A stretch of DNA of 64,000 nt, taken from the NCBI GenBank assembly GCA_002069945.1, contig MWCH01000004.1:4959-68958 (forward strand), given 5' to 3'. The notes below the pieces were generated by a model. That model was not told the DNA's origin. It saw only the letters and a program-made list of their open reading frames with translations, and ran no database searches. Position 1 is the first letter of the stretch. Each line of letters starts with the position of its first letter. Origin of the DNA: Microgenomates group bacterium ADurb.Bin219 (GTDB lineage Bacteria > Patescibacteriota > Microgenomatia > UM-FILTER-40-11). A program made the translations under genes and the position numbers. Below, one piece after another: positions 1 to 59,043 of the stretch.

Positions 1-643
1 ATACAGTAATAAAAAGAAGAAATAATTTTTTCTTTGTTAATTTTTTATATTGTAAAATAGGAAAAAGAACAAATAGATTTATAAGAAACATCACTCCCAT
101 AAAATGAAATAATGTCGCTAAGATACCGCATAATACCAACCATAGTACATTCTTTATCCCCCCGATATTTTTAAAAGTTTTAACAAGTAAATATGCCCCT
201 AGAATCCAGAAGAATTGAATAGCTTGATACGGTCGCAGTTGTCTAGAATAAAGAATTTCAATATTTAGAAACGTCGTTAAGAATGCTGTAAGTAGGCCCA
301 CCTCGGCTACAAATAATTCTTTGCCTAATTTATAAACTACTAAAATCGTTAATACTCCAAAAATGGCAGTCGGTAATCGCAAAGAAAATTCGCTTAAACC
401 AAATAATTTCGCTGAAACCGCACTAGTCCAATATTCCAACCACTGGTAAATACCGGTTGAATAACCGTTAATTAAAACAGGTCTTCCTCTTTCTATAATT
501 GCTCTTGAAAAAATCGCGACATGCCCTTCGTCTGTCCAAAAAGAATAATTAACTTCCTGCCCGTTAACTCGATAAAGAAAACCGATCAACAACAGAATGG
601 ATAAAACCAATTTTTCCCATCGGTTATTTTTTTGCTTGAGCAT
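1..643 (-). CDS. GT-C fold glycosyltransferase (ArnT/PMT-like), 5' part only; the ORF runs off the left edge of the window
   Basis: Manual minus-strand translation from an ATG near 643 gives MLKQKNNRWEKLVLSILLLIGFLYRVNGQEVNYSFWTDEGHVAIFSRAII...LFGLSEFSLRLPTAIFGVLTILVVYKLGKELF... with no stop before position 1. The WTDEG plus LSEF..RLP..FG N-terminal signature matches the other GT-C paralogs in the window. It is absent from the ORF track, presumably because it has no stop inside the window. Confidence 0.5.
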   Translation of the reverse strand, partial: MLKQKNNRWEKLVLSILLLIGFLYRVNGQEVNYSFWTDEGHVAIFSRAIIERGRPVLINGYSTGIYQWLEYWTSAVSAKLFGLSEFSLRLPTAIFGVLTILVVYKLGKELFVAEVGLLTAFLTTFLNIEILYSRQLRPYQAIQFFWILGAYLLVKTFKNIGGIKNVLWLVLCGILATLFHFMGVMFLINLFVLFPILQYKKLTKKKLFLLFITV

Positions 644-1322
644 CTTGCCTTTCTTCGTCAAATATCTCCACAAACATCTGAATTACCCCTATGGCTAAAA
701 ACAAGTACGCCCAATTAGCGGTTTTTTCCGCCCATAAATCTTTTTTATAAATAAGCAAAAATGGGCAAATTGACAGATAACACAACGAACCAATCATTGA
801 AATTTTAGCTTTAAATCTAAACATTCGAACTACTATCACCCACATTCCGGTTAAGAACAAAATTATTGAATCTAATGTCGAAGTGATGATAAAAATCTCC
901 AACAAAATTCCGAGAAAACAGTAAAAAAGAAAAATATATTTTGAAAAAAAGTATCTTTTAATAAAATCAACTAATTCGAAAGTAAAAGCAACAAGGTATG
1001 CGATCGCTAGGACTAAATCCCTACCTAAATCACTCGAAAAAAGAGAAGATAAACCAACAATTTTAGGTTGGATGTTCTTAGCTCGACCTTCAATCTCTGT
1101 TTTTTTCTTTTTTGATTCCGAACTTAATATCTTCCAAACGAATTTCCGGTTAGCGATTACTTCCAAAAAAAAATAAATCCAAAAGGGAATCAAAAAGGCT
1201 AAAAAAAACAAGCGAAGGTCTAAGCCAAAATCAAAATTTATAAGTTTGGCTAGAGTTAATCCAACCAAGACAAAAAAAAGCGTGATAACGACTTTAAAGT
1301 ACTTAGGAAAATAAATTTTCAT
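624..1322 (-). CDS. hypothetical polytopic membrane protein
   Basis: 232-aa ORF, very hydrophobic with several predicted TM helices; no recognisable catalytic motif. Confidence 0.4.
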   Translation of the reverse strand: MKIYFPKYFKVVITLFFVLVGLTLAKLINFDFGLDLRLFFLAFLIPFWIYFFLEVIANRKFVWKILSSESKKKKTEIEGRAKNIQPKIVGLSSLFSSDLGRDLVLAIAYLVAFTFELVDFIKRYFFSKYIFLFYCFLGILLEIFIITSTLDSIILFLTGMWVIVVRMFRFKAKISMIGSLCYLSICPFLLIYKKDLWAEKTANWAYLFLAIGVIQMFVEIFDEERQDAQAKK

Positions 1323-1372
1323 TTAATTAAGTTTATAAAGTCCATTAAGTTATTCGGTTCAATCTTCAGTAT

Positions 1373-2113
1373 TTATTTCTCTACCTGATTTAGTGTCGCT
1401 GGATTTCTTATTTCAAACTGAACCGGATTGCTATTCTTTCCTTCTTTGGTTATTACTTTAAGTTTCATCATCCCAAATTTTCTCGGAACAGGAATCTCCA
1501 ACAGTAACGACTTGTCGTCCCAATTAACAACTCCCATCCTTTCTTCTCCCAAATAAACTTCTCCTCCCTTCCAAACCGGACCAAAATTCACTCCTCCGAT
1601 CTTCACTAACTCTGCCTGAATTCCCCGTTTGGGAGAGTAACTATAAATCTTCGGTAAATATTCTCGGGCAAGTTTTTCCTCACGATACTTAAGGTAGACC
1701 AATCCGCAAACCGAAAAAAAAAGGAGTAACATCAGGTAATATTTTATCGTTTTTAGGCGGGATTGCCAGTTAACCAGACTAAAAATGACAACCAAAAGTA
1801 TGATAAAGACGATCGCAATCTGAGAAGGAAGCTTGGGAGTAATAAACAAAATCTCGGTTATTACAAACTCAACCGGCAAAAACAATAAAGAATAAAAAGA
1901 AAGGGAGAGAATCGCCGAAGAAGAAATATTTATAACCGGATTAATGATGGCTAAAAATAATGGTGAGTTATGATGCTCCCAAATAAACTCTACGATTAAC
2001 GAACCCACCAAAAAAATTAAAACCGCTCCTAAGGCATAAATAATTACCTTAAATAAGACCAGGGTAAGCAAAAAAATCAAACATGAATAGATAAAAGTTG
2101 ATAATTGCTTCAT
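1373..2113 (-). CDS. membrane protein with a C-terminal IPT/TIG-like Ig-fold domain
   Basis: Four to five N-terminal TM helices. The C-terminal ~80 aa (SYSPKRGIQAELVKIGGVNFGPVWKGGEVYLGEERMGVVNWDDKSLLLEIPVP...KLKVITKEGKNSNPVQFEI) fit the IPT/TIG pattern (I.S.SP..G..G..V.I.G.NFG...V..G..V.W.D..L.VP...G.V.V.T..G.SN.F.I). Confidence 0.4.
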   Translation of the reverse strand: MKQLSTFIYSCLIFLLTLVLFKVIIYALGAVLIFLVGSLIVEFIWEHHNSPLFLAIINPVINISSSAILSLSFYSLLFLPVEFVITEILFITPKLPSQIAIVFIILLVVIFSLVNWQSRLKTIKYYLMLLLFFSVCGLVYLKYREEKLAREYLPKIYSYSPKRGIQAELVKIGGVNFGPVWKGGEVYLGEERMGVVNWDDKSLLLEIPVPRKFGMMKLKVITKEGKNSNPVQFEIRNPATLNQVEK

Positions 2114-2124: not shown

Positions 2125-3330
2125 CTACAGGTTGAATTGAAAATCGTCAACCAGGTACATTGAATTAGCCGTAAAAATACCTGCCCCTCCTGAAGAAAAG
2201 CTTCGGTCATCAGTTTCTCCGATTTTGATAAAATTTTCTCCGTCAACCGAGAGCAAGAAAGTTAAATGAGTTCCTTTTAATTCTGCCTTTAGCCAAAAAG
2301 GGGTTCCTAACGTTAATTCAAAGTTTTGAATAATTCCTTTAGCTAAAGAAATATTCGCAACCTTGTTATCAAACTGGCCAATTTTATAAATCTCCCAACT
2401 TCCGGCGCCAACCCCGTCCATCATAAAATAATAACCAAAGCCGTTCTGATAATTTCCTCTTAAAAAGAGGCCAAAATTTCCTAATTTTAAGGCAATAAAT
2501 TTAGCTGAAAATGAGAAATTTTTAGCCGAACTTATCTCCCTAAGATTAGCAAGATTGCCACCTATCCCACTAACTAAAAGTCCAAACGAGGAACCTGTTT
2601 TCCCTAAAGATAATATTTTTGGAGTATCGGTATTCCAATCCTCAATATAATTGTCCTCTTTTTCAATCCACATCAAATCAAGATTAACAGAAGCCGAAGT
2701 TTTTGGTCGAGAGATTAGCTCAAAAGAAACTCTTTTAACCTCTCCTTCCTTAAAACCTGATCCTTTTTTTGAATACGGCCCGTTTGTGTAATCCTCGGAG
2801 AAATCTTTTTGGGGAACCGTCAATAAATTCCAGCCGGCTTGCAACTCGCGTATTGGGTAACGAGCGGCTTCTTGGCCATTTCCTTGAAAAAGAACTATCA
2901 CCAGATCCTCGATTTTATCTGTTCCCGAACGAACGTCTAAAAATAATTTCAATTTGGAAAAGTCGCTAAAGTTTAAGCTTTGGGGTAACTCCAAAATCGC
3001 TTTTGACCTCGAATGGTTCTGGCTACTTAAAGAAAGAGAGCTTTTCCCTTCAACAAAGTCGGTATAATCAAACTCACCATCTCCTTGCCATTTCTCCACA
3101 TCCTCAAAATGAGATAAATATTCAACTTTATCCAAGGATCGATCGGAATAAGTCAACCGGTACTCTTTCTTCATATAAGGAATTTCTGTCATCGTGTTTT
3201 TTAATTCGGAAAGATCATTCTTTTTCGGCAGAAAAAAAATTTTTCCCTGCAGATAAAGATAACCACAAACTAAAAAAACAACAAAAACAATAAAAAAAGC
3301 TAGCCTTTTTTCATTAAAATATTTTTTCAT
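2125..3330 (-). CDS. signal-anchored extracytoplasmic protein, beta-rich, possible concanavalin/LamG-like lectin fold
   Basis: 401 aa with a single N-terminal TM/signal anchor followed by a Ser/Gly/Asn-rich beta-type sequence. The C-terminal segment (...DGVGAGSWEIYKIG...LSVDGENFIKIGE...SGGAGIFTANSMYLVDDFQF) resembles LamG/ConA-like domains. Weak call. Confidence 0.35.
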   Translation of the reverse strand: MKKYFNEKRLAFFIVFVVFLVCGYLYLQGKIFFLPKKNDLSELKNTMTEIPYMKKEYRLTYSDRSLDKVEYLSHFEDVEKWQGDGEFDYTDFVEGKSSLSLSSQNHSRSKAILELPQSLNFSDFSKLKLFLDVRSGTDKIEDLVIVLFQGNGQEAARYPIRELQAGWNLLTVPQKDFSEDYTNGPYSKKGSGFKEGEVKRVSFELISRPKTSASVNLDLMWIEKEDNYIEDWNTDTPKILSLGKTGSSFGLLVSGIGGNLANLREISSAKNFSFSAKFIALKLGNFGLFLRGNYQNGFGYYFMMDGVGAGSWEIYKIGQFDNKVANISLAKGIIQNFELTLGTPFWLKAELKGTHLTFLLSVDGENFIKIGETDDRSFSSGGAGIFTANSMYLVDDFQFNL

Positions 3331-6870: not shown

Positions 6871-7821
6871 CTAATTGTTGTTCTTCACTACATAAAAACA
6901 CATCGTGTCTGATTTTTTAACCAGTGCTAAAACTATTGTCAATGGTAAAAAGAAAATTTTAACTGACATCCAAAACTTATTTACGTTCTTTCCGTTCCCA
7001 AATAAATAAGCTAAACTCCGACCAAGCGAATATGTTGAAATATCATATTTGACTTTCCTTATTCTAAATCCTCCGATAGAGAAAAGTAATTTTTTAAAAG
7101 TTTCAGAAGTAAAAAGATATAAATGCCTAGGGGTTTCTAGAGGAAACCAATAACTTCGAAAAATTATTGAATTTACACTCTCGAAGTTTGGTGTAGTAAT
7201 TAATAATAATCCCTTATATTTAAGTATTTTTTTTATCTTCTTCAATATCACCTTAGGGTCCGGCAAGTGCTCTATAACATGATTTAAAACCACCACGTCG
7301 AAAAAATTATTCGGATAATTGTTATTTACTAACGAACCATATTTTACATTTTTTAGACCTAGTTCTCTTTGGGCAAATTCGACTGCCATTTTGGAGATAT
7401 CCAATCCGTAAACTTCCCAACCGCAATTTTGGAGATTATAGAGACCCAATCCATTACCACAACCTAAGTCTAAAATTCGACCGTTTTTTTTAAAAGGTAT
7501 CGGATTATATACCTTCTCAAAAATAAAAGAGAGAAAATAGTCCCATCTTGATTTGTTTTTTTCATAGTATTTATTCAAAAGTTGATTATATAAATTTTGA
7601 TGAAAATCTTTGTTTGAAATATTGTAAGGCTCATAGGATGGTGGATAAAAATCAGATATATTTGTTGGCTTTGGATTTACAAAAATTAATCCACACTTAC
7701 AACACTGGACAATCTTGAACTTTCCTCCAAGATGGGTTAGAAAATCGTAACTCTCCCTTATCAATCTATTTTCCGAACTTCCACAGAGGTTACATTTTTG
7801 ATTATATTTTATTTTTTTCAT
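6871..7821 (-). CDS. class I SAM-dependent methyltransferase with an N-terminal zinc-ribbon
   Basis: Two CxxC pairs at the N-terminus (CNLCGSS...CCKCGLIF), then Rossmann motif I (ILDLGCGNGLGLYNL) and the acidic post-I residue (LDIS). Confidence 0.7.
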   Translation of the reverse strand: MKKIKYNQKCNLCGSSENRLIRESYDFLTHLGGKFKIVQCCKCGLIFVNPKPTNISDFYPPSYEPYNISNKDFHQNLYNQLLNKYYEKNKSRWDYFLSFIFEKVYNPIPFKKNGRILDLGCGNGLGLYNLQNCGWEVYGLDISKMAVEFAQRELGLKNVKYGSLVNNNYPNNFFDVVVLNHVIEHLPDPKVILKKIKKILKYKGLLLITTPNFESVNSIIFRSYWFPLETPRHLYLFTSETFKKLLFSIGGFRIRKVKYDISTYSLGRSLAYLFGNGKNVNKFWMSVKIFFLPLTIVLALVKKSDTMCFYVVKNNN

Positions 7822-7958
7822 ATCTATCCTTAATTGGCATTAAAAGATTTTGGAAGTTTTAATTCAACTAAATATTTCTAATTAATATAATAGAGAATCG
7901 TTTCGTTAAGCATATAAATTCCACCAAACTATACGAAGAAGGACGATGTTGGCTCTCG

Positions 7959-8585
7959 CTATTCCTCACTAGAATTAATAAATTTATTTATAAAATTATT
8001 AATATCGTAAAAATAATGAGCGTTTTTAATAACTTTTTCATTAGGCCAATTCCACCATTTAATCTTCAATAATTTTTCTATAATGTCTTTGGGAAATCTC
8101 ATTTTAACCACTCTCGCCGGATTTCCAGCTGCTACCGAATAGGGCGGTATATCTTTAGTCACTACTGCTCCCGCTCCAATTACAGCTCCGTCGCCGATGG
8201 TTACACCAGACAAGATATAAGCGCCTTCGCCAATCCATACGTCATTACCAATCTCAATTGGACCTTTAGTGAAAAGGTCATTTTCCTTGTTAGTTTTATT
8301 GATCAAAGAGATCGGAAAAGATGTTACTCTCTTATAATTATGCTCACTCACTCCGAATATCTTTACTCCTTCAGCAAAAGAACAGTATTTCCCAATTTTT
8401 ATATTTCCACTTTCCCCGAACATTAGAAATGTTTTATATCTATACCCATAAGTAAACGCTCCTATACAAATTTTTGGATGGAGACTGATAGCATAATTCT
8501 CTAACAATGAAATAATTTTACTCTTTAAGTATAAGATTCGGAATAGAACTCCAGATATTGGAAAAAATAGCTTCTTTCTAATCAT
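7959..8585 (-). CDS. hexapeptide-repeat (LbH) acyl/acetyltransferase, sugar O-acetyltransferase-like
   Basis: Hexapeptide repeats [49 protein letters not shown] are typical of the Vat/Mac/LacA-type acetyltransferases found in polysaccharide loci. Confidence 0.75.
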
Positions 8586-8633
8586 TTTTAATTACTGTCC
8601 ATTTATTCAAGAATTTCCGTATGATTTCACAAG

Positions 8634-9914: not shown

Positions 9915-9930
9915 TTTTTCGAATAAATTA

Positions 9931-14860: not shown

Positions 14861-14866
14861 TCAAAT

Positions 14867-15664: not shown

Positions 15665-15666
15665 TT

Positions 15667-17115: not shown

Positions 17116-17126
17116 AAATTTGTGAT

Positions 17127-20199: not shown

Positions 20200-20213
20200 T
20201 TTATCTTATTTAA

Positions 20214-24410: not shown

Positions 24411-24439
24411 AATCCGTTAATTCTTTAATATTTTAATCT

Positions 24440-24480: not shown

Positions 24481-24489
24481 GGAATTAAA

Positions 24490-38745: not shown

Positions 38746-38753
38746 CTTTATAA

Positions 38754-41545: not shown

Positions 41546-41567
41546 TAACGGTACTTGTTTTGATTAA

Positions 41568-44155: not shown

Positions 44156-44230
44156 TGTTGCTTCTCAGAAGTTAATTATTAAATATCTTTTTTTATCGAT
44201 GCGCCTTTTTAAAATAAATTCCTGGAAAAA

Positions 44231-44245
44231 ATCTAGAAATTCTAG
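44231..44245. promoter_or_regulatory. palindrome TCTAGAA-A-TTCTAGC (6-bp arms) in the 111-bp intergenic gap upstream of GT2 gene 43325-44155
   Basis: CTAGAAATTCTAG is the reverse complement of itself around a central A/T; operator-like. Coordinates are approximate. Confidence 0.2.
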
Positions 44246-44266
44246 CTAAATTTGTTTCCGAAATAA

Positions 44267-47010: not shown

Positions 47011-47128
47011 TTTTATTCTCCTTAAATAACTTTTTCAGATTAATTAGAAATATCACTAAGTTAACTAATATTATACCGCTAACGATCATCTTATTACTAA
47101 GCAAATCAATTAAAAATGAAATCCTGGG

Positions 47129-47150
47129 TCTTTACCAAAGATGGTAAAGA
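47129..47150. promoter_or_regulatory. 9-bp stem hairpin (TCTTTACCA-AAGA-TGGTAAAGA) downstream of the GT87-like pseudogene
   Basis: Perfect inverted repeat with a 4-nt loop, followed by TTT on the plus strand; it lies in the 47011-47197 non-coding stretch upstream (in transcription order) of the GT-C gene 45466-47010. Confidence 0.25.
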
Positions 47151-47197
47151 TTTAAAAAGTAAATAACCGAAGGAATAATAAAAATTTTAAGCCATGA

Positions 47198-48263: not shown

Positions 48264-48271
48264 TCTTAGCT

Positions 48272-49165: not shown

Positions 49166-49212
49166 GACTGAATTCTATCACCAAATTTAAGTTTCTCCAA
49201 AAAAATTACAAA

Positions 49213-50655
49213 TTATTCGGGCAATGAAAGCAAGGATTCATCTCCCTTGGTTAGAATGACCTGACCTTTAGTAAAAGGAGGGATTTGTGTAAGTTCATCA
49301 ATTTCCGTTTTCTTTCCAACTATCCATTTAATTTCTTTTTTTTTGACTTTTTCCGCTAAATCTTGTCTGCTTAAGAAAAATAAGCCCGTGCCAGCACTTT
49401 TGTCCGAGGAATAAACATAGCGATCTGTATAATAAATTGTTGTTGGATAAAGATGATCTAATCTGACAACCAAATCATCTTCTTTCGAAATTCTTCGAAG
49501 ATAAAGGCTAACCTCTGCTTGATTAGCTGTCGTTTGGCTGGTCATAACCGAACGAATGTTGACAATATAAGTCTTATACGAAACATAAGAAGACAAAGCT
49601 AAAACCATAAAAACTACCAAATACTTAATTATTCTTCTCTTTTCGAATATCTTTAAAAATTTGTTGGTCCCACAGGCAACGGTTATTGCCCAAAAAGGCA
49701 TAGAAGGAATTAAATACCAGTTATTATCTCTTTGGCCAAAACCGACTAAAATCAGCAAAAAGGTAGAAAAAGCCACCATTAAAAAGTTCTTTGCTTCTTT
49801 TATCTTAGTAATCAAAAAAAATAATCCCATCACAAAAACCCAAAAAAATCTTCTTTGTAAGCTGTAATAGCAATACCTAATATAATTAAAATTGAAGTGG
49901 GAAAGAACAAAATTTGCGGCACCCTGGTCCGATTGAAAAAGATAGTATTGGGCGAAATGCCAACCTTGCTTTATGCTCCCTAAAAAAAGCCAGCTACAGG
50001 AAATTGAAACAAAGATTAATAAAAGTAATAAATAACTTTCTTTCTTTTTCTTTAGATCGTTTCTCCGAAAGAAAAGTTCGTGAAGGACAAAAATTCCTAA
50101 GGGAAAAAAGACCAAGGAGGCTTTCGTCAAATAAATAAGAGCAAACATTATTCCAAGCAAATAATTTCTTTCTTTCCTTCTTGATAAAATCAAAAAATAA
50201 ATTAAAAAAATCTCCAACGAGACAAGTGCATCGAGATTTCCCGTCCTGGCTCTCCAAATAAAAACATTATTCAGCGCTAAGGAGGAAAAACCTAAGAGAG
50301 AAGGTACTAAACCATAACTCCGATAACAATAGTAAGTCGTAGCAGTAATAATAACCAAAGCACTGAAGGCTGACGGAAGCCTAATCGAAAACTCGGAGAG
50401 CCCGATTACGCTTGAGATTAACGCTCCTACCCACATAAAAAAGGGTGGCTTATCCAAAAGAACACTCCTATTCCAATACAAAACAATAAATTCTTTTTTT
50501 CGCATCATGTTCCTTATAATATCCCCATACCAAGCTTCATCCCAATTTTCTAAATAAAATCCACCTAATTTATAAAAAACAATATAGGCGGCAAAAGCCC
50601 CTAATGCTACCAATACGAGCTTTTTCCCAATTTTTATAAAATCTTTAAATATCAC
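49213..50655 (-). CDS. GT-C fold glycosyltransferase, ArnT/GT83-like
   Basis: YLENWDEAWYGDIIRNM (DE loop), LDKPPFFMW, GLSEFSIRLPSAFSAL; 480 aa polytopic. Confidence 0.6.
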   Translation of the reverse strand: MIFKDFIKIGKKLVLVALGAFAAYIVFYKLGGFYLENWDEAWYGDIIRNMMRKKEFIVLYWNRSVLLDKPPFFMWVGALISSVIGLSEFSIRLPSAFSALVIITATTYYCYRSYGLVPSLLGFSSLALNNVFIWRARTGNLDALVSLEIFLIYFLILSRRKERNYLLGIMFALIYLTKASLVFFPLGIFVLHELFFRRNDLKKKKESYLLLLLIFVSISCSWLFLGSIKQGWHFAQYYLFQSDQGAANFVLSHFNFNYIRYCYYSLQRRFFWVFVMGLFFLITKIKEAKNFLMVAFSTFLLILVGFGQRDNNWYLIPSMPFWAITVACGTNKFLKIFEKRRIIKYLVVFMVLALSSYVSYKTYIVNIRSVMTSQTTANQAEVSLYLRRISKEDDLVVRLDHLYPTTIYYTDRYVYSSDKSAGTGLFFLSRQDLAEKVKKKEIKWIVGKKTEIDELTQIPPFTKGQVILTKGDESLLSLPE

Positions 50656-53084
50656 CGATTTTCCCTCCGTTGAAATTTCAATAACAAAAATATTGCCACT
50701 GTCAAAGAGAAAACAGAAACTAAACTTCCTAAAATTACTGTTTTTGGCCGGTAAACAAAATGAATTTGATGTTCTCCTTTAGGAACAGCTACAGAACGAA
50801 AATTAAAATTTGCCCTATAAATTGGCGTTCTCGTGCCGTCGATATAAGCTTCCCATCCCGGAAAATACGAATCGGAAACAAACAAAAAGGAAGGCCTATC
50901 AACTGCTACACTAATTTTCTCTTCGTTAGGTTGATAGGTAAGCCATTCCAGGCGGTTCTCCTTCTTTTGAGTTTTATCGTCTTCAGAGATATCAAAACTG
51001 ACATCCGGTTCAGTTTCTAAAACAATAGTCTTTTTAATATTAAATTGAGGTTCGGAAATTAACTTAATAATTTCCCTGTTATTCTTTGCCACCTTAAAGT
51101 CATTAACCAAAATCGCTCTCGGTAAACAATCTACGTTCTTTAAAACAACAACTCTTTTATCTTCAAAAACTTTCTCAAATTTTTTATCTCTAAATTTCCA
51201 ACCAGGAATCCCTGCTGGGTCAGGAACAGAAATTTCGTTACGTTTGACGGCTAAAAGATAGCAAATATTCGCTAGGTCAAAAAATTTATTATCGTATTTC
51301 TCTACCCCTCCAAATCTGCCTTGGGCAGAAATTCCGTCACCACCATTAATTACCGACATAAATTGAGTCGATCTCAGGGTTCCGAAAGCATCGTATCCAG
51401 AAAATGATTCTAGACCGTATGGCATCAACATATTCATCGGGACAGCGTCTCCTCCTTCAACCCGAAAGACCCCTTTTTGGCTCTTTAGATAATTAAGTAC
51501 TGGAGTAGTCGGAAAAATTAACTTTCTGTCAGAAAAAGGAGTATATTTCCAGCCAAATCTCACCAGCTCAAAATAAACCAAGAAGAGAAAGGAAATTCTT
51601 ACTAGTCTTGACAGACTATTTCTTAAAACCCCCAGAATTAATAATAAACAGGAAGCAAGAATAAAACCAAGCGGTAAAACCAAATTTCTCATTCCTACGT
51701 TTAAATTTCTTAGCCAACCTTCTAATACCTCCCGAGAAAACGAATCGGTTGCTACTCCTGAAAAGGATCTAAATGATTGCCGGGACAAAAAAGAGCCTGT
51801 CAAAACCCCGAAGACAACGATTGTCGGCAAATATAAACTTCTAATTACCTTAAAATCATATTTTTGTTTTAGAAAATCAAGACCGAACGCTGCTAAGGCG
51901 GCTAAAGAAAAATTTGCCAGAAAAAGTACTCTATCTCCCGCGGCTCCACCCAATCCTAAAAATTTTAATTTATTAAGAAAAATCGCCGCCGGTGAAGGAA
52001 AAGCAAAAGAAAGAGAAAAGACAAAAAGCAACAACAAAAACAAAATCTCTTTCTTCTTAATAAAAATAACTGCTAGCGAAGCCAAAATAACTACCACTAT
52101 TCCAGAATAGCCGCTATTCCTAGTGTAATTCCCTTCTCCCCAATAATTTCCTGTGGTAATGTTACCAAAATAATCCGGAGCGAAAAAAGAAATTAGATTA
52201 TTGTTTTTTAGGTAGGCTTCGTTTCTATTAATCGTTTCAATTTGCCGACGAGAATTAATCAAAAGCTCAAACGAAGGAAAAAGTTGAATACCAGAAAGGG
52301 TAATACCTAAAATAAAAAATAAAATTAAATCGATTGCCCTTTTCTGCCAAAACTTCTCAACTATCATAACAAAAAGTATTTCTGCAAAAACAGAATAAAC
52401 TATTACCTGTGGATAACCGGAAAAAATTTGCAAAGCTAATGTAAGGCTAAAAAGAACACCAAAACGTATTTTTCCCGATCTTAAATATTTGCTGGAAAAT
52501 AGCAATAGAAGCGGTAAAAAAGAAGCAGTAAAGACATGGGAACCCCATTGAGACCATATTATGGAAAAGCCAGAAAAGGAATAAACAATTCCGCCTAAAA
52601 GACTACTGAGCTTGCTTATTTTCAAATATCTTAGTAACCAATAAATAAACAGCCCGCAAAATAAAGTCTGAAAGAAAATTTGCATCCCCCAGGCGACAGG
52701 AACAGGGGAAACGAAGTAGAATAGATTGGTTGGATTAAAAATTCCTAATTGAATATTCCCCAAAAAAGGATAACCGCCAAACATATAAGGATTCCAAAGA
52801 GGTAATCTTCCATTCTTCAGTGAACTGATTAAATAGCTTTTCATTGGAAAGAAAAGAGAGACCACGTCGGAAATCAAAGAATTTTTTACAGGAACCCCAA
52901 CTGTATATCCCCATTTATAATCGAGCCACGGAAAATACATTCCTACAATAATATCAGCCGGGATAGGAATTGATCCTTTAAAGAAAAATCTCCAAAAAAA
53001 AATGATTACCAGAAAAACAAGTACGGAAAATGGCCAAATCCGAGAAAAGCATCTCTTAAAATCCATGTTCTTTGTTCGCTGCAA
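50652..53084 (-). CDS. YfhO-family membrane protein (GT-C-like)
   Basis: 810 aa; N-terminal region PADIIVGMYFPWLDYKW...GRLPLWNPYMFGGYPFLGNIQLGIFNP resembles the YfhO family signature; ~13 TM helices, an extracytoplasmic domain and a C-terminal TM anchor. Confidence 0.55.
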   Translation of the reverse strand: MQRTKNMDFKRCFSRIWPFSVLVFLVIIFFWRFFFKGSIPIPADIIVGMYFPWLDYKWGYTVGVPVKNSLISDVVSLFFPMKSYLISSLKNGRLPLWNPYMFGGYPFLGNIQLGIFNPTNLFYFVSPVPVAWGMQIFFQTLFCGLFIYWLLRYLKISKLSSLLGGIVYSFSGFSIIWSQWGSHVFTASFLPLLLLFSSKYLRSGKIRFGVLFSLTLALQIFSGYPQVIVYSVFAEILFVMIVEKFWQKRAIDLILFFILGITLSGIQLFPSFELLINSRRQIETINRNEAYLKNNNLISFFAPDYFGNITTGNYWGEGNYTRNSGYSGIVVVILASLAVIFIKKKEILFLLLLFVFSLSFAFPSPAAIFLNKLKFLGLGGAAGDRVLFLANFSLAALAAFGLDFLKQKYDFKVIRSLYLPTIVVFGVLTGSFLSRQSFRSFSGVATDSFSREVLEGWLRNLNVGMRNLVLPLGFILASCLLLILGVLRNSLSRLVRISFLFLVYFELVRFGWKYTPFSDRKLIFPTTPVLNYLKSQKGVFRVEGGDAVPMNMLMPYGLESFSGYDAFGTLRSTQFMSVINGGDGISAQGRFGGVEKYDNKFFDLANICYLLAVKRNEISVPDPAGIPGWKFRDKKFEKVFEDKRVVVLKNVDCLPRAILVNDFKVAKNNREIIKLISEPQFNIKKTIVLETEPDVSFDISEDDKTQKKENRLEWLTYQPNEEKISVAVDRPSFLFVSDSYFPGWEAYIDGTRTPIYRANFNFRSVAVPKGEHQIHFVYRPKTVILGSLVSVFSLTVAIFLLLKFQRRENR

Positions 53085-54384
53085 AAAGTTTAAAAATTAA
53101 AAAAGCGCTGGTTCCTGCTAAAAAACTCCTAATTAAACTTTTTAACTGAAAAACATCCGTATAGCGACCAAGAATTTCGGAAAAGCCAACTGCTTTTTCT
53201 AATTGAGGATTAATTGGGTTAAACAGACCAAAAGATAATGACGGCTCAAACAATAATGTCAAAGCCAACCAACAACTGGAAATGGCTAACGTTAAGACAA
53301 GATGTCTGTAATCATTTTCCACTAGCTCCCAAATTAAAAATGGAGTCACCCATAAAAACCATTGCGGGTGAAAGTGGGTAACCGAAAAAGTTAAAAGTAA
53401 CACCGCTAGGAAATAAATACTGGGACTAAGTTTCTTTTTAGTATAAAAGGCTAAAAAATGAATAATCGTCAAAAATAAAACAAATGGGTAAACTACCTCC
53501 GCTCCAGAAAGAGCCCAGCCCATAAAAAGCATTTTTTGACTTTTAGGAGAAAAGACCATTGCTCGGAAAGCAGAGGAACCTAAGTAGGGAGCAATAAAAA
53601 GAAGAAAAGGAAAAATTCCAATTATGGCTAATTTAATTCTTTCGCGAAATTTATCGGTTAATAAAAAAACTAAAGGCAACAATAAAAAAAGCGGATACAT
53701 TTTATAGGAAGCAGCAACCCCCATCATAAAAACCGACAAATTAAATCTTTTCTTTTGAAAAAAGTACAAAGACAGAACCGTAAAAAACGTCGGTAAAAGA
53801 TCCAGCTGCCCCATCATAAAGGAAGTGTAAATTGCCAAAGGATTAAATAGCCAAAGAAGAAAAGCCGCATTTTTCTTTTTTTCTTCCCGGAATAACCCCG
53901 CCAACAGAAAAGCTACCCCGATATCAAAAAAGAGATACGGGAGTTTAAAGAAAAAAAGGTGCTTGCCTAAATTCGGATAGGAGTGAATCAAACTTAAGTT
54001 CTCCATTAACCAGGGAATAAAGTTAGGATCAGTAAAAGGCTTAACTAAAATCCTGAAAATACCCAAAGTGTAGTAGGTCAATGGCGGATAAATAAAAATA
54101 TCGCTAATCCCGAAATTTTTTACCAGAGGATGGGTTGGAGAAAGATTAGCTAAGGTATCATAAAGGTTGAACTTGCCTTCGTAAGCAAAAAAATAAGCAC
54201 TAAAGGAATGGCCGAGCAAATCCGGATGAAGAGTAATTGGCATCAGAATCATCCGTACGACAACCGCTATCGCAAGCAAGAAAAGTGTTTTTTTATTTAA
54301 AAATCTAAAGGACGATCCTTTTAACATTTTCGATGAAGTTCTCCTTTGAAAAGATTTTACTCCTTTTAGCTGCCTGATTGCCAA
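53056..54384 (-). CDS. GT-C fold membrane glycosyltransferase, DUF2029/GT87-like subfamily (copy C)
   Basis: LHPDLLGHSF N-terminal loop; LWLFNPLAIYTSFMMGQLDLLPTFFTVLSLYFF block homologous to 38754-40058. Confidence 0.45.
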   Translation of the reverse strand: MAIRQLKGVKSFQRRTSSKMLKGSSFRFLNKKTLFLLAIAVVVRMILMPITLHPDLLGHSFSAYFFAYEGKFNLYDTLANLSPTHPLVKNFGISDIFIYPPLTYYTLGIFRILVKPFTDPNFIPWLMENLSLIHSYPNLGKHLFFFKLPYLFFDIGVAFLLAGLFREEKKKNAAFLLWLFNPLAIYTSFMMGQLDLLPTFFTVLSLYFFQKKRFNLSVFMMGVAASYKMYPLFLLLPLVFLLTDKFRERIKLAIIGIFPFLLFIAPYLGSSAFRAMVFSPKSQKMLFMGWALSGAEVVYPFVLFLTIIHFLAFYTKKKLSPSIYFLAVLLLTFSVTHFHPQWFLWVTPFLIWELVENDYRHLVLTLAISSCWLALTLLFEPSLSFGLFNPINPQLEKAVGFSEILGRYTDVFQLKSLIRSFLAGTSAFLIFKLFAANKEHGF

Positions 54385-55354
54385 TCAAAATAATTTTTCC
54401 TTCATCTTTAATAAGTTCAGTAGTTTTTTCTTCTAACTCTGATTCTGTTTCCCAAAAATAGCCGCTTTTGCCCTCCTCGACAATTTCTTTAAAGCCACCT
54501 TTCTTTAGTAAAAACGGCACTGCTCCGGCAGACATGGCCTCAACTGCAGTCATCCCAAAATGCTCAACTCTCTCCGGCTGGGATTCTTCGTCCACATCAA
54601 AACCGCTAGCTGACCAAAATATTTTCGCCTTTGAATAAAGATTGACCAAATCGGCAAACGGAATATTTTCTTCAATTTTAATAGGATAGCCAGAAACAAT
54701 CTTTTTCAAGTAACTAACGAACTCCTTACCACCAACGTCGCTTCCACCGGCGATAACCAATCGCCATCCTTTTAATCCATTATTACATAGCCTTTTAAAA
54801 ACCTTTATCAAAATATCCTGTTTTTTTGCCTGAAGCAGTTGGGAAAATCTGGCGACAGAGATAATTAAATTTTCTTTTTTCTCCGGCTTAAAATTTTCAA
54901 GGTTAATCGGCGGATGAATTACTTTGCTGGAGATTCCAAATGTTTTATCGATAAAATTCTTAGTAAAATATGAATTACAAACAACTTCGGAAATCATCAA
55001 CAATTTGATTTTATTTAACAATGAATTACCCCCGATTCTTTTAAATGGAACCTGAACATGAAGAATATTTTTTTTACCGAACATCAAAGGAATGCTGCCG
55101 TCACCCATAAAAAACAACAAATCATACTTACGTAAGGTAATAAATTTTTCAATAATCCCCTTGGGGGCTGGAATAAAATTTGCCTTCCCAATATCCAATC
55201 CTAATCTTTCCTCGATTTTTTTCTTTAAATTTTCTCCATCCCAAAAAATATCAACCTCAAAATCATTTTTCAGAAGTAATTCGGCCAATGTCAAACAATA
55301 TTTTTCTCCCCCGCCGAGTGTATCCAAATATGGATCGTAAATTCCCGCTTTCAT
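54305..55354 (-). CDS. GT4 family (GT-B) glycosyltransferase
   Basis: N-terminus MKAGIYDPYLDTLGGGEKY; C-terminal EHFGMTAVEAMSAGAVPFLLKKGGFKEIVEEG (E-x7-E region). Confidence 0.7.
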   Translation of the reverse strand: MKAGIYDPYLDTLGGGEKYCLTLAELLLKNDFEVDIFWDGENLKKKIEERLGLDIGKANFIPAPKGIIEKFITLRKYDLLFFMGDGSIPLMFGKKNILHVQVPFKRIGGNSLLNKIKLLMISEVVCNSYFTKNFIDKTFGISSKVIHPPINLENFKPEKKENLIISVARFSQLLQAKKQDILIKVFKRLCNNGLKGWRLVIAGGSDVGGKEFVSYLKKIVSGYPIKIEENIPFADLVNLYSKAKIFWSASGFDVDEESQPERVEHFGMTAVEAMSAGAVPFLLKKGGFKEIVEEGKSGYFWETESELEEKTTELIKDEGKIILIGNQAAKRSKIFSKENFIENVKRIVL

Positions 55355-56190
55355 AAGTTTTTAGCTTTGAACTTTTCGCTTTTAACAAAATTTTGCATTT
55401 CCCAAAGTCTTGCATAAGTAATAAACACGCTGAAAACCTGGTAAATCGCTTCCAATACTCCTTCCGTCCCGTCACGCCACGCTTGTAGTTTTATCATTCG
55501 TTTATAAAATTCTCTGCCCATTGCTCCGAAAAATCTTTTGGTATTCATCGGCGGATGGTTGGCTTTAAAAAGCATTTCCGCTTCCAAACCTGACCATTGA
55601 ATAGTATTACTTAATTTATGTTCAAATGAACCGCGATGACTATAATGAATTAAAGATTCTTCCAATTTGCCGACTCGACCTTCTATCTGCGGTTGCTCGT
55701 GCAGTTTTCCTTCCCATTTTACAAGTTTATCTTTTTTTATCAGTCTCAGAACATAATCCGGCCACCAGCCGCCAAATCTCATTTCCTTCCCTAGCCGAAT
55801 ATTTCTCCTTGGAATCGCAAACCCCACTTCTCCTGTCCTTTTATTCTCCTGCTCTTTTACTTTAATAAGAATTTCTTCTCTCAAAAGCGATGTCACCCTT
55901 TCGTCCGCGTCCAAATACAAAACCCAATTTCCGGTTATTTTTTTTAAGGCAAAGTTTCTCCACGCCGAATAATCAATTTCTTTCGGCCCTTCATATTTAT
56001 ATACTTTTGCACCATACTTTTCCGCCACTTCCGTTGTTTTATCAATTGATCCGGTATCTAAAATTACTACTTCATCCGCCCACTCAACCGACTCCAAACA
56101 CTCACCAATCACTTCCTCCTCATTCTTGGCGATTACGATAACAGAGATTAACGTCTTGTTTTTTATTATTTTTTCTTTGTCTTTTTTCAT
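55351..56190 (-). CDS. GT2 family glycosyltransferase (paralog of 27229-28041 and 62395-63276)
   Basis: ISVIVIAKNEEEVIGECLESVEWADEVVILDTGSIDKTTEVAEKYGAKV, DxD (YLDADE). Confidence 0.7.
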   Translation of the reverse strand: MKKDKEKIIKNKTLISVIVIAKNEEEVIGECLESVEWADEVVILDTGSIDKTTEVAEKYGAKVYKYEGPKEIDYSAWRNFALKKITGNWVLYLDADERVTSLLREEILIKVKEQENKRTGEVGFAIPRRNIRLGKEMRFGGWWPDYVLRLIKKDKLVKWEGKLHEQPQIEGRVGKLEESLIHYSHRGSFEHKLSNTIQWSGLEAEMLFKANHPPMNTKRFFGAMGREFYKRMIKLQAWRDGTEGVLEAIYQVFSVFITYARLWEMQNFVKSEKFKAKNL

Positions 56191-57155
56191 TTTTGATTAT
56201 TCCAGCTTCCTTTTCCGAATTTTCCTAAATAAAAATCCCTCACTCCGATTTTTTGCCATTTTCTTCCTTTGATAATCATTGTAAGGCTCTCTCTAACTAA
56301 GGCTATTTTTGACCTCAATGGCGCCCATCTTATCCCAAACAAGAGCCGATTCCTAGTTAAAAAATAATCGTGCAGGTTGCTTCCCGATCCGGAAGAAGCA
56401 GCGTTCAGATGCCAAATAATTGATTTTGGCGTATAAAAAAGTTTATAACCGGACTTTAATGCCTTTTGGCAAAAATCCGTTTCTTCAAAATAAGCAAAAT
56501 ATTTTTTATCAAGCAAGCCGGCTTTCTCAAAAACTTCTTTTTTAACCAACATTAAGCAACCGTTCACATACTCTGTCTCTATTTCAGTCTCATATCTTCC
56601 GTCGTCCACTTCGTCAACCCCCCGATGTTTGGCGTAAACATTTTTCCAGTCAATAATTCCCCCGGCATACCAGATAACCTTTCCCCGGTCTGCCGGTTTA
56701 TATCTTTCTTTATGAAATTCGTAGCCTTTCTCAAAATAAATTTTGCCGCCGACAACTCCGATTTTTTCATCCGATTCGGCCGCTTTGATCAACTCCGTTA
56801 AAAAATTTGGCGAAACCCGGGTATCATTATTTAAAAGACAAATATAATCAGCCCCATTTTCAAGCGCATACTTTATTCCTATGTTATTTCCTTCCGCGTA
56901 CCCTAAATTTTCTTTGTTTTCAATTAGTTTAATTGTTAAAGAATTAGCGGATTTTTCTTTTAAATTTTTTAATTTCCTAAATTCGTTAATTTTTTTAATC
57001 GAATCGTCGTTCGACCTGTTGTCCACCACAACAATTTCCCGTTTTTCATTTCCTGACCCTGCTTCCAACGCTTTCATTACCGATTCCAGACACCTTAAGG
57101 TCATTTCTCCCTGATTCCAATTGAGAATAATCAAAAATGTCTTTTTTGTCCTCAT
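56187..57155 (-). CDS. GT2 family glycosyltransferase
   Basis: FLIILNWNQGEMTLRCLESV...IVVVDNRSNDDS, LLNNDT, EETDFCQKALKSGYKL. Confidence 0.7.
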   Translation of the reverse strand: MRTKKTFLIILNWNQGEMTLRCLESVMKALEAGSGNEKREIVVVDNRSNDDSIKKINEFRKLKNLKEKSANSLTIKLIENKENLGYAEGNNIGIKYALENGADYICLLNNDTRVSPNFLTELIKAAESDEKIGVVGGKIYFEKGYEFHKERYKPADRGKVIWYAGGIIDWKNVYAKHRGVDEVDDGRYETEIETEYVNGCLMLVKKEVFEKAGLLDKKYFAYFEETDFCQKALKSGYKLFYTPKSIIWHLNAASSGSGSNLHDYFLTRNRLLFGIRWAPLRSKIALVRESLTMIIKGRKWQKIGVRDFYLGKFGKGSWNNQK

Positions 57156-57177
57156 GCTATTGATTGTATATCATTTT

Positions 57178-59043
57178 TCAAAAAACTACCCTCGGTTCCG
57201 ATCCGGCCACTTTGTAAAGATAAAGACAAAAGAAAATAACCATTATTGTTAAAATGATTCTGCGCATTTTTCCGGAAAGTTTAATTAAAATGGAATAAAT
57301 CAAAATACCCAAGAAAATATGAATTAGAGGATAAACAAATAGACTTTTCAAGCTGCTTTCCCAAATCCAATTAAAATCAAATTTCAACAAAGCGCCGGCA
57401 ATTAACGAGGAAAGGTCTTGATTTACCAGAGAAACAGATCCGGGCGCAATTTTAAGACCAAAAAACCTTAAAGGATCCCAAACAAACCCAAAATAATGGA
57501 TCCCCTGTAGTCTGGTATATCTCAATGCTCCAACAATAAAATCGGCTCCGTAAGTAAGCGGGAAAATTTGCATTAGCAATTTTAGATTTTTTACTTTATT
57601 AAAAAAAAGTTTTATCGCCAGGAAAAAAAAGCTGTAGGAAACAATAACCGCCAAAAACTGAATTAAAGAAAGATTTTTAAACATCGGGCCAAAATAAATA
57701 AACCTTCCAAACTTGGTATAACTTAAGAAAATATTTAAAAAGGAGGCAAAGATAAAAACGGAAACCGGAAAATAGTGCCAAACAAGCTTATATCTAACGT
57801 AAAACACCAACCCTAGAAAAAATGCAAATAATGCCGGTAGAGGAGAAAAAATATAACCTTCCGCTTCGGTAATAGGCAACCTCCGATTCAAAAAACTGCT
57901 TTTATCGGCGATAAAGTAATCCTTAAAAGCCAAATTTTGTTTATAAAAAGTTTTTTCTCCCAAGAAATCGTTTTCTCTGGCTTGGGGATTAAGAATCCAC
58001 TGGCTGTGGCTGTCTTTTAAAACCAGCTCTGAAGGATTTAGGGGATAAATATTTTTATAAATGTCGGCAAATTCCGCCATCGTTACGCTTTGTAAATTTT
58101 TTATTTTTGATAAAACCGACAATTGATTCGCAAATTCAGGGAACACCTTAACACTTTCTATACCCGTCTCCAAACCGACGGTTATTTGACCAATCGACAA
58201 TTGACAATCCAGGTAACGACTTACCAATTCTTTAAAATATGAGGTATTAAGCCTTCTTTCAAGATAATCGTTTGCCTGTAACGAATAGTTGGAAAAACTG
58301 GTCCCCTCTCCGTAAGCCTTGGAGAGATCTCTTTGCGCCCACTGAAGAACTACCGGTCCCAAAATATCTTCTTTGCTTTTGGCAGGAACCAAAACATTGG
58401 CGAGAGAAGGATAATACGGCACGCCCCACCACTGCCCCCAAACTCCATAGCTGTCGGTCGTCCGCTGGTCTGCCACTATCAACACGGTTGCCAAACCGTA
58501 TTTGTTTTTTATGTATTCCAAAGAATAAGAGTCTATCCACCAGGCGCCTACGGAAACCGGATATCTTCCGAATTTTTCCTTGAACCCGGAAAATACAGTA
58601 TCGATCAATTTCCTTCTCTCGCTTTGGGTATAGCCGGAAAGAAAAATTACACCTGGATCGCTCCAGGGAATTAATGGCGGATAAATCACCCGAGCGGCCG
58701 AAGCCAAATCGGGAGAGATTTCCAAGAAAAGACCAAGTTCCTGGTTGGGAGAGAAATTATTATTTATATAAGCAATAATTTCTTTATCTTCCAAGGCGTC
58801 ATATTGCAAAAGCCAAGTGGCAGAAAAGTTATATTTCCGGATTTCTCGATATTGGTTTTCCACCGGTTTTAAAGAATTGTCCAACCAATGATTTCTGCCC
58901 CTAACCGGATTTATAATCGTCAAGTAACGGTTGGGGCAATTAACATTTTCTTCCGATAAAACATTCTTTTTAACCAAAAAAAAGGAAAAAAAGATAATCA
59001 AAAACAAGAAGATTTTTTTAATTCTCATAATATAACCCGACAA
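57178..59043 (-). CDS. membrane protein: N-terminal extracytoplasmic domain of unknown function (~400 aa) plus C-terminal polytopic (~8 TM) domain; first gene of the minus-strand array
   Basis: 621 aa; signal/anchor (IFLFLIIFFSFFLV), then a hydrophilic Trp/Tyr-rich domain (…GAWWIDSYSLEYIKNKYGLATVLIVADQRTTDSYGVWGQWWGVPYYPS…), then a hydrophobic C-terminal third. Confidence 0.4.
   Translation of the reverse strand: MSGYIMRIKKIFLFLIIFFSFFLVKKNVLSEENVNCPNRYLTIINPVRGRNHWLDNSLKPVENQYREIRKYNFSATWLLQYDALEDKEIIAYINNNFSPNQELGLFLEISPDLASAARVIYPPLIPWSDPGVIFLSGYTQSERRKLIDTVFSGFKEKFGRYPVSVGAWWIDSYSLEYIKNKYGLATVLIVADQRTTDSYGVWGQWWGVPYYPSLANVLVPAKSKEDILGPVVLQWAQRDLSKAYGEGTSFSNYSLQANDYLERRLNTSYFKELVSRYLDCQLSIGQITVGLETGIESVKVFPEFANQLSVLSKIKNLQSVTMAEFADIYKNIYPLNPSELVLKDSHSQWILNPQARENDFLGEKTFYKQNLAFKDYFIADKSSFLNRRLPITEAEGYIFSPLPALFAFFLGLVFYVRYKLVWHYFPVSVFIFASFLNIFLSYTKFGRFIYFGPMFKNLSLIQFLAVIVSYSFFFLAIKLFFNKVKNLKLLMQIFPLTYGADFIVGALRYTRLQGIHYFGFVWDPLRFFGLKIAPGSVSLVNQDLSSLIAGALLKFDFNWIWESSLKSLFVYPLIHIFLGILIYSILIKLSGKMRRIILTIMVIFFCLYLYKVAGSEPRVVF

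Follow-up and report, generated by a model that had tools for sequence, protein, structure and literature searches.

A candidate envelope-glycan super-locus dominated by GT-C glycosyltransferases in a Microgenomates-group bacterium

Introduction

Glycosyltransferases of the GT-C class act outside the membrane with polyprenyl-phosphate-linked donors. Here, we analysed a 64,000-nucleotide stretch of DNA (called the window below) from Microgenomates group bacterium ADurb.Bin219 (assembly GCA_002069945.1, contig MWCH01000004.1, positions 4,959 to 68,958), in which a long run of genes, g1 to g46 plus one gene cut by the left edge, is rich in such enzymes. We propose, with a probability of roughly 0.6, that the window is the central 64 kb of a modular envelope-glycan super-locus of at least 86.6 kb in a Microgenomates-group bacterium, with a pathway resembling ALG or that of mycobacterial lipomannan and lipoarabinomannan (LM/LAM).

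The mycobacterial LM/LAM and arabinogalactan pathways (PimE, MptA/B/C, AftA-D, EmbA-C, Ppm1) share with this locus a large number of GT-C enzymes and, with its proposed pathway, extension of the glycan outside the membrane and the use of polyprenyl-phosphate sugars. The likeness may extend to the MptA/B-family g36, the GT87-like g42 and g32, the AftD-like g4 and the Ppm1/PpgS-like g19. However, the mycobacterial genes are scattered round the chromosome, whereas here at least 23 GT-C-type genes lie within about 87 kb, the dominant family is PMT_2-type and not Emb/Aft-type, and the host belongs to the Candidate Phyla Radiation (CPR). Neither a decaprenyl-phospho-arabinose pathway nor PimA-type specificity was detectable in the locus.

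With the eukaryotic and archaeal ALG pathway and its oligosaccharyltransferase (OST), the locus shares cytoplasmic GT4 and GT2 enzymes, a flippase of the multidrug/oligosaccharidyl-lipid/polysaccharide (MOP) type, a DPM1-like synthase, and a non-redundant series of GT-C enzymes (ALG3/9/12-, PIG-V- and PIG-U-like folds) including some whose fold is as close to STT3 as to other GT-C proteins. It differs in that no ALG7/WecA-type initiator was found in it, a WWDYG motif and N-glycosylation are demonstrated for the ALG pathway alone, the genes are bacterial and clustered, and decoration by pyruvyl, acetyl, methyl and radical S-adenosylmethionine (SAM) enzymes is added. The three-component systems GtrA-GtrB-GtrC, ArnC-ArnEF-ArnT and CsbB-GtcA-YfhO likewise combine a GtrB/ArnC-like synthase, here g19, with GT-C enzymes, here including a true YfhO-family protein, g41. 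Their synthase serves one GT-C enzyme, while one synthase stands here beside about 18, and Wzx-type flippases take the place of GtrA/GtcA or ArnE/F, which were not detected in the locus. Finally, Wzx/Wzy loci for O-antigen or capsule share Wzx, GT2 and GT4 enzymes, acetyl-, pyruvyl- and methyl-transferring enzymes, a single strand and variable decoration. In such loci GT-C enzymes are normally absent or single (ligase-like), whereas here they take half of the coding capacity, and no Wzy, Wzz/polysaccharide copolymerase or initiating transferase was found in the locus.

Every protein family involved is known and routinely annotated, and it is the arrangement that is unusual: GT-C enzymes of at least seven subfamilies make up about half of an 87-kb locus that also encodes Wzx and enzymes for radical-SAM, pyruvyl and acetyl decoration, and whose core is shared across a CPR lineage. 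No description of GT-C arrays in CPR bacteria was found in the literature searched.

Results

Gene inventory and GT-C assignments

The 47 genes in positions 1-59043 include 30 intact glycosyltransferases and one pseudogene, namely 18 intact GT-C genes and a GT-C pseudogene, nine GT2 and three GT4 genes. A tenth GT2 lies outside this part, at 62395-63276. An earlier reading of the DNA, made from the sequence only, had estimated about 33 glycosyltransferases among roughly 47 genes, with three GT4, about 20 GT-C and 10 GT2 enzymes. The GT-C proteins account for 51% of the coding residues (9,784 of 19,061).

GT-C membership was judged by at least eight transmembrane (TM) helices together with a match to a GT-C profile or fold, and both were found. 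In the Pfam check of the polytopic proteins, 13 fell into GT-C families above curated Pfam gathering thresholds: ten in PMT_2/PMT (g25-g29, g31, g33, g34, g37 and g40), and one each in PIG-V, YfhO and PIG-U/GT87. The subfamilies proposed by the sequence-only reading (PMT/ArnT-like, GT87-like, YfhO-like and PIG-V-like) were therefore correct by Pfam. The YfhO match of g41 covers residues 68-661 with 107.7 bits (threshold 28.5), which places the protein in that family, and the GT87 match of g42 scores 28.2 bits (threshold 25).

Five further GT-C calls were made by routes other than the protein's own above-threshold Pfam match. The open reading frame (ORF) at the left edge and g36 were called from precomputed Pfam matches, that of g36 being to PF26314 (MptA_B); its match to TIGR03459 (5.6e-6) is far below the cut-off. 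The call for g32 rests on paralogy with g42 and g38, and its orthologue on contig L028 of a related genome gives a weak ALG3 match. No Pfam match was obtained with g4 itself, a protein with about nine N-terminal TM helices, an outer domain of about 700 aa and a C-terminal TM helix. Its full-length homologues P0009 and P0010 (38% identity) match PF11847 (GT-C_AftD) with 24-29 bits at a gathering threshold of 26, and its C-terminus is similar to that of g41. The fifth protein, g9, carries the residues D66-E67 after TM1, invariant across its homologues. It appears to represent a lineage-specific GT-C family, invisible to profile databases and previously unrecognised.

An acidic D-E or E-E pair after TM1 is present in all PMT_2-type members, among them g33, g37 and g40, and in g9. 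Lying in the first extracytoplasmic loop, it is the putative catalytic D-E motif of GT-C enzymes. PDB sequence searches with g4, g9, g46 and a 530-aa plus-strand protein gave no matches, and profile-profile comparison of an alignment of the seven PMT_2-type paralogues (see below) with the single sequences of g4, g9 and g46 gave nothing usable. Pfam at E-values up to 10 and NCBIfam returned nothing for g1, g3, g16, g30, g32 and g46.

The GT-C genes and the genes that adjoin them are as follows (L-numbers are contigs of other assemblies and genomes).
1..643, minus strand: 5′ part of a PMT_2-type GT-C gene (505-511 aa); PMT_2-like N-terminus, PF13231 in the full-length copies of L017 and L018
3403..6855, minus strand: g4, 1150-aa AftD-like GT-C, by the PF11847 match of its homologues
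11392..13665, minus strand: g9, 757-aa candidate lineage-restricted GT-C, by D66-E67 after TM1
21785..22825, minus strand: g18, GT2 with three C-terminal TM segments, conserved core; orthologues 68-78% identical in L027 and L028
22822..23643, minus strand: g19, GT2, best candidate for a polyprenyl-phosphate sugar synthase, by PDB sequence matches
25045..28041, minus strand: g22, PIG-V/PMT_2-like GT-C; g23, GT4; g24, GT2 (conserved core), by Pfam and collinear orthologues in L008, L027 and L028
28038..36406, minus strand: g25-g29, five tandem PMT_2-type GT-C paralogues of 546-565 aa, by Pfam
36410..37057, minus strand: g30, 215-aa membrane protein homologous to residues ~250-420 of the PMT_2 paralogues
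37054..43328, minus strand: g31, PMT_2; g32, GT87/ALG3-like; g33, PMT_2; g34, PMT_2; all GT-C, by Pfam, g32 by paralogy
43325..47010, minus strand: g35, GT2; g36, MptA/MptB-family GT-C; g37, PMT_2 GT-C, by Pfam
46999..48270, minus strand: g38, decayed GT87-like GT-C pseudogene, by stops, a frameshift and a weak GT87 match
Within 48272..57155, minus strand: g39, GT2; g40, PMT_2 GT-C; g41, YfhO GT-C (810 aa); g42, PIG-U/GT87-like GT-C, by Pfam
Within 48272..57155, minus strand: g43, GT4; g44, GT2; g45, GT2, by Pfam

The longest remnant of g38 is a 232-aa ORF at 47405-48103. The reading frame is interrupted by stops at 47407 (TGA), 47200 (TAA) and 47134 (TAA) and by an N-terminal frameshift. An alternative genetic code was ruled out as the cause, since the stops are TGA, TAA and TAA and the other genes fit table 11, which reads through every gene except g38.

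PMT_2 paralogues and their fold

The predicted structure of g25 (predicted local distance difference test score 91) has only GT-C proteins among its strong structural matches. It superposes about equally on STT3B, ArnT, Pmt4 and ALG12; the fold therefore gives the class of the enzyme and not its acceptor. The residues D35-E36 are invariant in 47 members of the paralogue family. A W-x-Y-G motif, also family-wide, stands at the start of the C-terminal outer domain, the position where oligosaccharyltransferases carry WWDYG, and may serve as a lead towards an OST-like function. PF02366 (PMT) is matched above threshold by g25, g26, g27, g29 and g31.

These features raise an alternative to a shared envelope glycan, namely that the paralogues are PMT- or OST-like enzymes that glycosylate pilins, S-layer proteins or adhesins, each with its own sugar or target. 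It would agree with the above-threshold PMT matches of several paralogues, with STT3B and Pmt4 being among the best structural matches, with the W-x-Y-G motif at the WWDYG position, and with GmaR, a flagellin O-GlcNAc transferase, being the best solved relative of g24 (1.8e-15). Yet ArnT and ALG12 fit g25 equally well, the locus encodes no candidate acceptor protein, and no MIR domain was found. The STT3 Pfam matches of g25 orthologues were also considered as a lead to OST and discarded, since they fall on the membrane core generic to GT-C proteins. We regard dedicated protein glycosylation as unlikely. An ArnT (GT83) lipid A system, with the ArnA, ArnB and ArnD pathway and a lipid A acceptor, was not found either.

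The polyprenyl-phosphate sugar synthase

Dol-P-Man synthase (5mlz, 2.5e-14), GtrB (5ekp, 1.4e-11) and ArnC (7.5e-11) are the top solved relatives of g19. In NCBIfam the protein matches ArnC and PpgS below the cut-off, and it has no TM segment. Its sequence fits a GtrB-like polyprenyl-phosphate sugar synthase, and it is the best candidate for the one clear enzyme of this kind in the window. The gene is conserved in L007, L008, L010, L011, L027 and L028, standing beside GT-C arrays in every relative examined. These relationships agree with the earlier proposal of an envelope-glycan factory that uses polyprenyl-phosphate sugars.

A core conserved gene for gene in relatives

Comparison with related CPR genomes, which the sequence-only reading had suggested, showed a conserved core and a variable decoration module. 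The gene order g32-g31-g30-g29-g28-g27-g26-g25-g24-g23-g22-[Wzx, or phosphoribosyltransferase and nucleoside phosphorylase]-g19-g18 is found in three other genomes, represented by L028 (named Candidatus Microgenomates), L027/L023 (one 330-kb contig) and L008. Between the orthologues of g22 and g19, a Wzx gene is present in L028 and L008, and the phosphorylase/phosphoribosyltransferase pair in L027, as in the window. A gene for GDP-mannose 4,6-dehydratase adjoins the core in L008. Core orthologues are 44-78% identical, while the paralogues of the window share at most 40% identity, and in a neighbour-joining tree every window paralogue clusters with its positional orthologues. The duplications are therefore old, and each copy has been kept, which argues for distinct, non-redundant steps. 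Seven PMT_2-type paralogues are collinear in this way: g25-g29 and g31 in the core, and g34 two genes upstream of g32.

The small membrane protein g30 belongs to a family of 208-216 aa that corresponds to the central third of the PMT_2 paralogues and lacks their catalytic N-terminus. It is not a fragment: orthologues are found at 9283-9933 of L007, 800-1492 of L027 and 2750-3388 of L028, always between those of g31 and g29. It may be a non-catalytic partner of the GT-C enzymes.

Outside the core, the gene content varies. L023 keeps the frame g9-GT4 ... g4-g3-g2, and in it g6-g8 (acetyl- and pyruvyl transferase and FrhB-like protein) are replaced by another B12-binding radical-SAM enzyme and methyltransferases. 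An extra GT-C paralogue of the PTPS_related type is a separate gene in L027 and has no counterpart in the window; in L008 (4973-8329) it forms a single 1118-aa protein with the g27 orthologue. The locus is modular, its core being collinear 1:1 with relatives and its decoration module variable. It can be divided into (a) the conserved core, g32 to g18, including six PMT_2 paralogues, g30, g24, g23, g22, g19 and g18; (b) a second GT-C/GT2/GT4 set, g46 to g35, with MptA/B-, YfhO-, GT87- and PMT_2-type enzymes; (c) a variable decoration module, g17 to g5, with methyl-, acetyl- and pyruvyl-transferases, B12-radical-SAM enzymes and the GT-C g9; and (d) the AftD-like g4 with g3 to g1.

The same data bear on whether the paralogues are redundant or alternate copies that vary the surface glycan against phages or hosts. 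One copy, g38, has decayed to a pseudogene, assemblies repeatedly break at g26/g27 with exact g26 on one contig only, and L027 and L008 carry an extra paralogue absent here. Against a diversification array, every paralogue is matched 1:1 by an orthologue at the corresponding position in genomes about 40-55% diverged, identity between paralogues does not exceed 40%, and no invertible or repeat elements were noted. Such an array is very unlikely.

The closest species-representative genomes are those of Candidatus Daviesbacteria and metagenome-assembled genomes (MAGs) labelled 'Patescibacteria group'; Daviesbacteria belong within the Microgenomates group of Patescibacteria. Homologues in the g25 family number more than 4,000 and are named GT39-family, ArnT-family or 'phospholipid carrier-dependent' glycosyltransferases, from Patescibacteria, Microgenomates and Shapirobacteria. 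The CPR origin, earlier supposed from composition, is thereby supported. The same reading had called the number of GT-C enzymes far beyond described systems, which holds for a single locus in model organisms. Since the core is conserved across the Microgenomates-group relatives examined, the large array is not peculiar to this genome. L008 and L009 (CAYYLO010000001.1 and CAZQWX010000111.1) are labelled 'uncultured Gammaproteobacteria', yet these MAGs carry the syntenic Microgenomates-type core; the label is probably wrong, through a binning error.

Flanking genes and flippases

The locus continues for at least 13.3 kb to the left (downstream) and at least 9.3 kb to the right (upstream) on contigs that are 100% identical to the window in their overlaps. 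Positions 1 and 59043, formerly proposed as its ends, are thus not boundaries: glycan genes go on at both sides. The composite of at least 86.6 kb, with neither end reached, contains at least 23 GT-C-type genes, 12 GT2, five GT4 and three Wzx genes. On the left, the PMT_2 gene at the edge is followed by two Polysacc_synt (Wzx/MOP) genes, GT2, PMT_2, a 23S-rRNA-IVP/bAvd-like gene and GT4, and further out by two PMT_2 genes, GT4, a hexapeptide transferase and a 190-aa ORF. On the right (L022), a Polysacc_synt gene, a 488-aa protein and a GT2 lie upstream of the membrane protein cut by the edge, with two PTPS_related/PMT_2 membrane proteins and a 555-aa protein further out.

Flank genes thus supply the Wzx (MOP) flippase. 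Of the three Wzx genes (PF01943), two start at 0.9 kb from the left edge, and the third is found 1.0 kb outside the right edge; all three lie within 1-4 kb of the edges, on the strand of the window genes and in the same gene run. Profiles for Wzx, Wzy, Wzz and ATP-binding cassette (ABC) exporters gave no matches inside the window. The sequence-only reading was therefore right about Wzy/Wzz and the exporter, and its missing flippase was true of the window but an artefact of its edges. With these genes in the flanks, the argument that GT-C enzymes do most of the assembly for lack of a flippase loses its premise; from the number of GT-C enzymes alone, extensive extracytoplasmic assembly is likely. 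The flank search that it had called for found flippases, and no initiating phosphoglycosyl transferase in 22.6 kb. The GtrA/GtcA four-helix flippase family (PF04138) had no match among the window proteins, even when the E-value limit was raised to 10 for small membrane proteins that had no assignment. In the flanks of relatives no phosphoglycosyl transferase was found; they contain Gmd, an LPG_synthase_TM protein, DUF5667 and a weak Wzy_C match, the last in the distant relative L011 and below threshold.

The three Wzx genes also suggest that independent pathways, for example for a wall polysaccharide, a lipoglycan and protein glycosylation, lie side by side as an island, each with its own flippase. 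Such an arrangement would fit relatives that keep or swap modules independently, the interruption of the run by salvage genes and a plus-strand pair, and a strain variant whose identity falls from 100% to about 85% at about 19.5 kb. It sits poorly with the single clear polyprenyl-phosphate sugar synthase for about 18 GT-C genes, with the lack of a recognisable initiating transferase in any module, and with the tight same-strand packing (21 overlapping junctions). We consider separate pathways fairly unlikely.

Two side observations concern the flanks. The 23S-rRNA-IVP/bAvd-like gene, encoding a four-helix bundle of 114-124 aa, recurs in glycan loci of three genomes (L017 14969-15343, L027 14975-15319 and L028 11674-12048). 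The last 164 nt of L024 (9557-9720) are 97% identical to L017 12480-12643, the start of a 340-aa GT2 gene that lies 9.6 kb upstream of the end of L024, and the NCBI contig ends there too. To the left of the window, the 5′ end of a GT2 gene may thus be repeated, or a segment may have been duplicated.

Strand, packing and transcription

All 46 complete, non-nested ORFs of at least 100 aa called in 624-59043 are on the minus strand, as is the 47th gene, truncated by the left edge, in agreement with the sequence-only reading. Four-nucleotide start/stop overlaps occur at 10 junctions with longest-ORF starts and at up to 12 with alternative in-frame starts, and overlaps of other lengths at nine further junctions, giving 21 overlapping junctions in total. 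The tight packing reported earlier holds, while the claim of more than 12 four-nucleotide overlaps was too high. Five gaps exceed 100 bp in 1-59043 (137, 129, 111, 394 and 168 bp), not six; the two largest (394 and 168 bp) exist because the decayed g38 sits between them.

Promoter and terminator scans stayed at background, i.e., at the level of shuffled sequence or chance, and are therefore uninformative on operon structure. Scans for tRNA genes and Rfam families in the window found no features. The description of the run as one supra-operon found no support: besides the background-level scans, two salvage genes and a pseudogene lie within the run, and its modules are separable in relatives.

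Authenticity of the assembly and strain variation

We checked whether the array could be an assembly chimera or mis-binned mosaic, for which a GC drift of 0.30-0.39 across the window and the many contigs ending near 31 kb might speak. The drift has no sharp break. Independently assembled JGI, ENA, Logan and NCBI contigs, which stem from several metagenome projects, match 1-46406 and 52395-64000 with 99.9-100% identity, a 34.6-kb JGI contig is collinear with 31013-64000 and runs past the right edge, and L016 spans the point at about 31 kb where several assemblies stop. A chimera was rejected on the overlap of independent contigs and has next to no probability.

At g26/g27 (30761-31746), five independent assemblies end or drop in identity within 1 kb. 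The exact g26 protein is on one contig, compared with 11-12 contigs for g29 and g1, and the stretch is probably a hotspot of strain variation. L013 (ENA ERZ2624663 NODE_1069) is 100% identical over 2382-~19500 and then abruptly 78-94% up to 23699. This could reflect a recent exchange of the low-GC decoration module between strains about 15% diverged; alternatively, the contig is a strain chimera.

Decoration, salvage and unassigned genes

The remaining genes of the window are listed below.
624..2113, minus strand: g1 (232 aa, six TM segments, without family) and g2 (246 aa, six TM segments, C-terminal IPT/TIG domain)
2125..3330, minus strand: g3, N-terminally anchored extracytoplasmic protein; sole match sub-threshold, ConA-like
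6871..11262, minus strand: g5, SAM methyltransferase; g6, hexapeptide acyltransferase; g7, polysaccharide pyruvyl transferase; g8, FrhB-like 2x[4Fe-4S] protein, by Pfam
Within 13631..21737, minus strand: g10, GT4; g11, methyltransferase; g12, B12-radical-SAM; g13, GT2 (rhamnosyltransferase-like), by Pfam
Within 13631..21737, minus strand: g14, methyltransferase; g15, GT2; g16 (152 aa); g17, B12-radical-SAM, by Pfam
23610..25023, minus strand: g20, nucleoside phosphorylase, and g21, phosphoribosyltransferase, by Pfam
57178..59028, minus strand: g46, 616-aa protein with an N-terminal anchor, an outer domain of ~390 aa and five C-terminal TM segments
59378..62361, plus strand: the only plus-strand genes, for a 464-aa protein and a 530-aa membrane protein
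62395..64000, minus strand: GT2 (293 aa) and the C-terminal part of a 574-587-aa membrane protein

For decoration, the run encodes three SAM methyltransferases and two B12-binding radical-SAM enzymes, together with the hexapeptide acyltransferase, the pyruvyl transferase and an FrhB-like protein with two [4Fe-4S] clusters; all had been named in the sequence-only reading, and all are present. No NCBIfam model reached its cut-off for g10-g17. The genes g20 (PNP_UDP_1) and g21 serve salvage and are not glycan genes. Orthologues of g2 and g3 are kept in L023, that of g3 being 41% identical. The start of g46 is placed by gene callers five codons later than in the longest ORF. The protein is not recognisable as GT-C, and its homologue in L007 (1134 aa) has a DUF3863 match only, below threshold. 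The 464-aa plus-strand protein has a weak C-terminal SAM-methyltransferase domain. The 530-aa protein (60769-62361, plus strand) has four to five N-terminal TM segments and the C-terminal motifs HIIAPHPPY and LQSDHGP, which by eye resemble those of sulfatase/LtaS/phosphoethanolamine-transferase proteins; no match was found in Pfam, NCBIfam or PDB sequences.

Discussion

The envelope-glycan reading proposed at the outset builds on the observed enzyme classes and folds, the D-E motif, the flank flippases, the ancient 1:1 orthology and gene order and the authenticity of the assembly. Which donors are used, how the steps follow one another, what the acceptor is and whether the product is a single glycan or several are inferred. 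Assembly would begin at the cytoplasmic face, where soluble GT4 and GT2 enzymes would join sugars into an oligosaccharide on polyprenyl (pyro)phosphate; there, the carrier-bound glycan may also be methylated, acetylated and pyruvylated. Wzx-type flippases from the flanks would then carry it across the membrane. In parallel, g19, and possibly g18, g24 and g44, would load single sugars onto polyprenyl phosphate, with which about 18 GT-C enzymes would extend or branch the glycan stepwise outside, attach it to the final acceptor, or both. Candidate acceptors are a wall polymer, a lipoglycan or a surface protein.

Several results weigh against this reading. No WecA/MraY- (PF00953) or WbaP-type (PF02397) initiating transferase, no Wzy polymerase or chain-length regulator and no GtrA-like small flippase was detected in the window and its 22.6 kb of flanks, and no acceptor is assignable. 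The modelled fold leaves OST-, ArnT- and PMT-like roles of the seven paralogues unseparated. No GT2 or radical-SAM enzyme reached an NCBIfam equivalog cut-off, and the GT-C calls for g4 (transitive and near-threshold) and g32 (by paralogy) are weaker than the others. Support for co-transcription of the run was at chance level in the scans.

A bolder version of the envelope-glycan pathway would be a bacterial ALG-type, stepwise lipid-linked-oligosaccharide pathway in Microgenomates-group CPR bacteria, combining all of the following elements. Synthesis of the glycan would begin in the cytoplasm, and Wzx would carry it across the membrane. An ordered series of at least seven old, non-redundant PMT_2 GT-C enzymes, with the PIG-V-, GT87-, MptA-, YfhO- and AftD-like proteins and g9, would then elongate it on the outside. 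One W-x-Y-G member would act in an OST-like manner and transfer the decorated glycan to a surface protein or polymer for host attachment, and the half-size g30 would be a dedicated non-catalytic GT-C subunit. Taken jointly, these elements are improbable, and we offer them tentatively.

CPR bacteria (Patescibacteria) make up a large share of bacterial diversity, have genomes of about 1 Mb and live attached to other cells. Next to nothing is known of the chemistry of their surface. With at least 87 kb and about 40 glycan enzymes, the locus would take up several per cent of such a genome. Its roughly 20 GT-C enzymes, drawn from at least seven subfamilies, form a compact natural set for studies of GT-C specificity, and the putative lineage-specific GT-C family of g9 and the conserved 'half GT-C' g30, a possible partner protein, are further objects of study. 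The size of the locus and the gene-for-gene conservation of its core point to a surface glycoconjugate, large and defined, with a central place in the biology of these bacteria.

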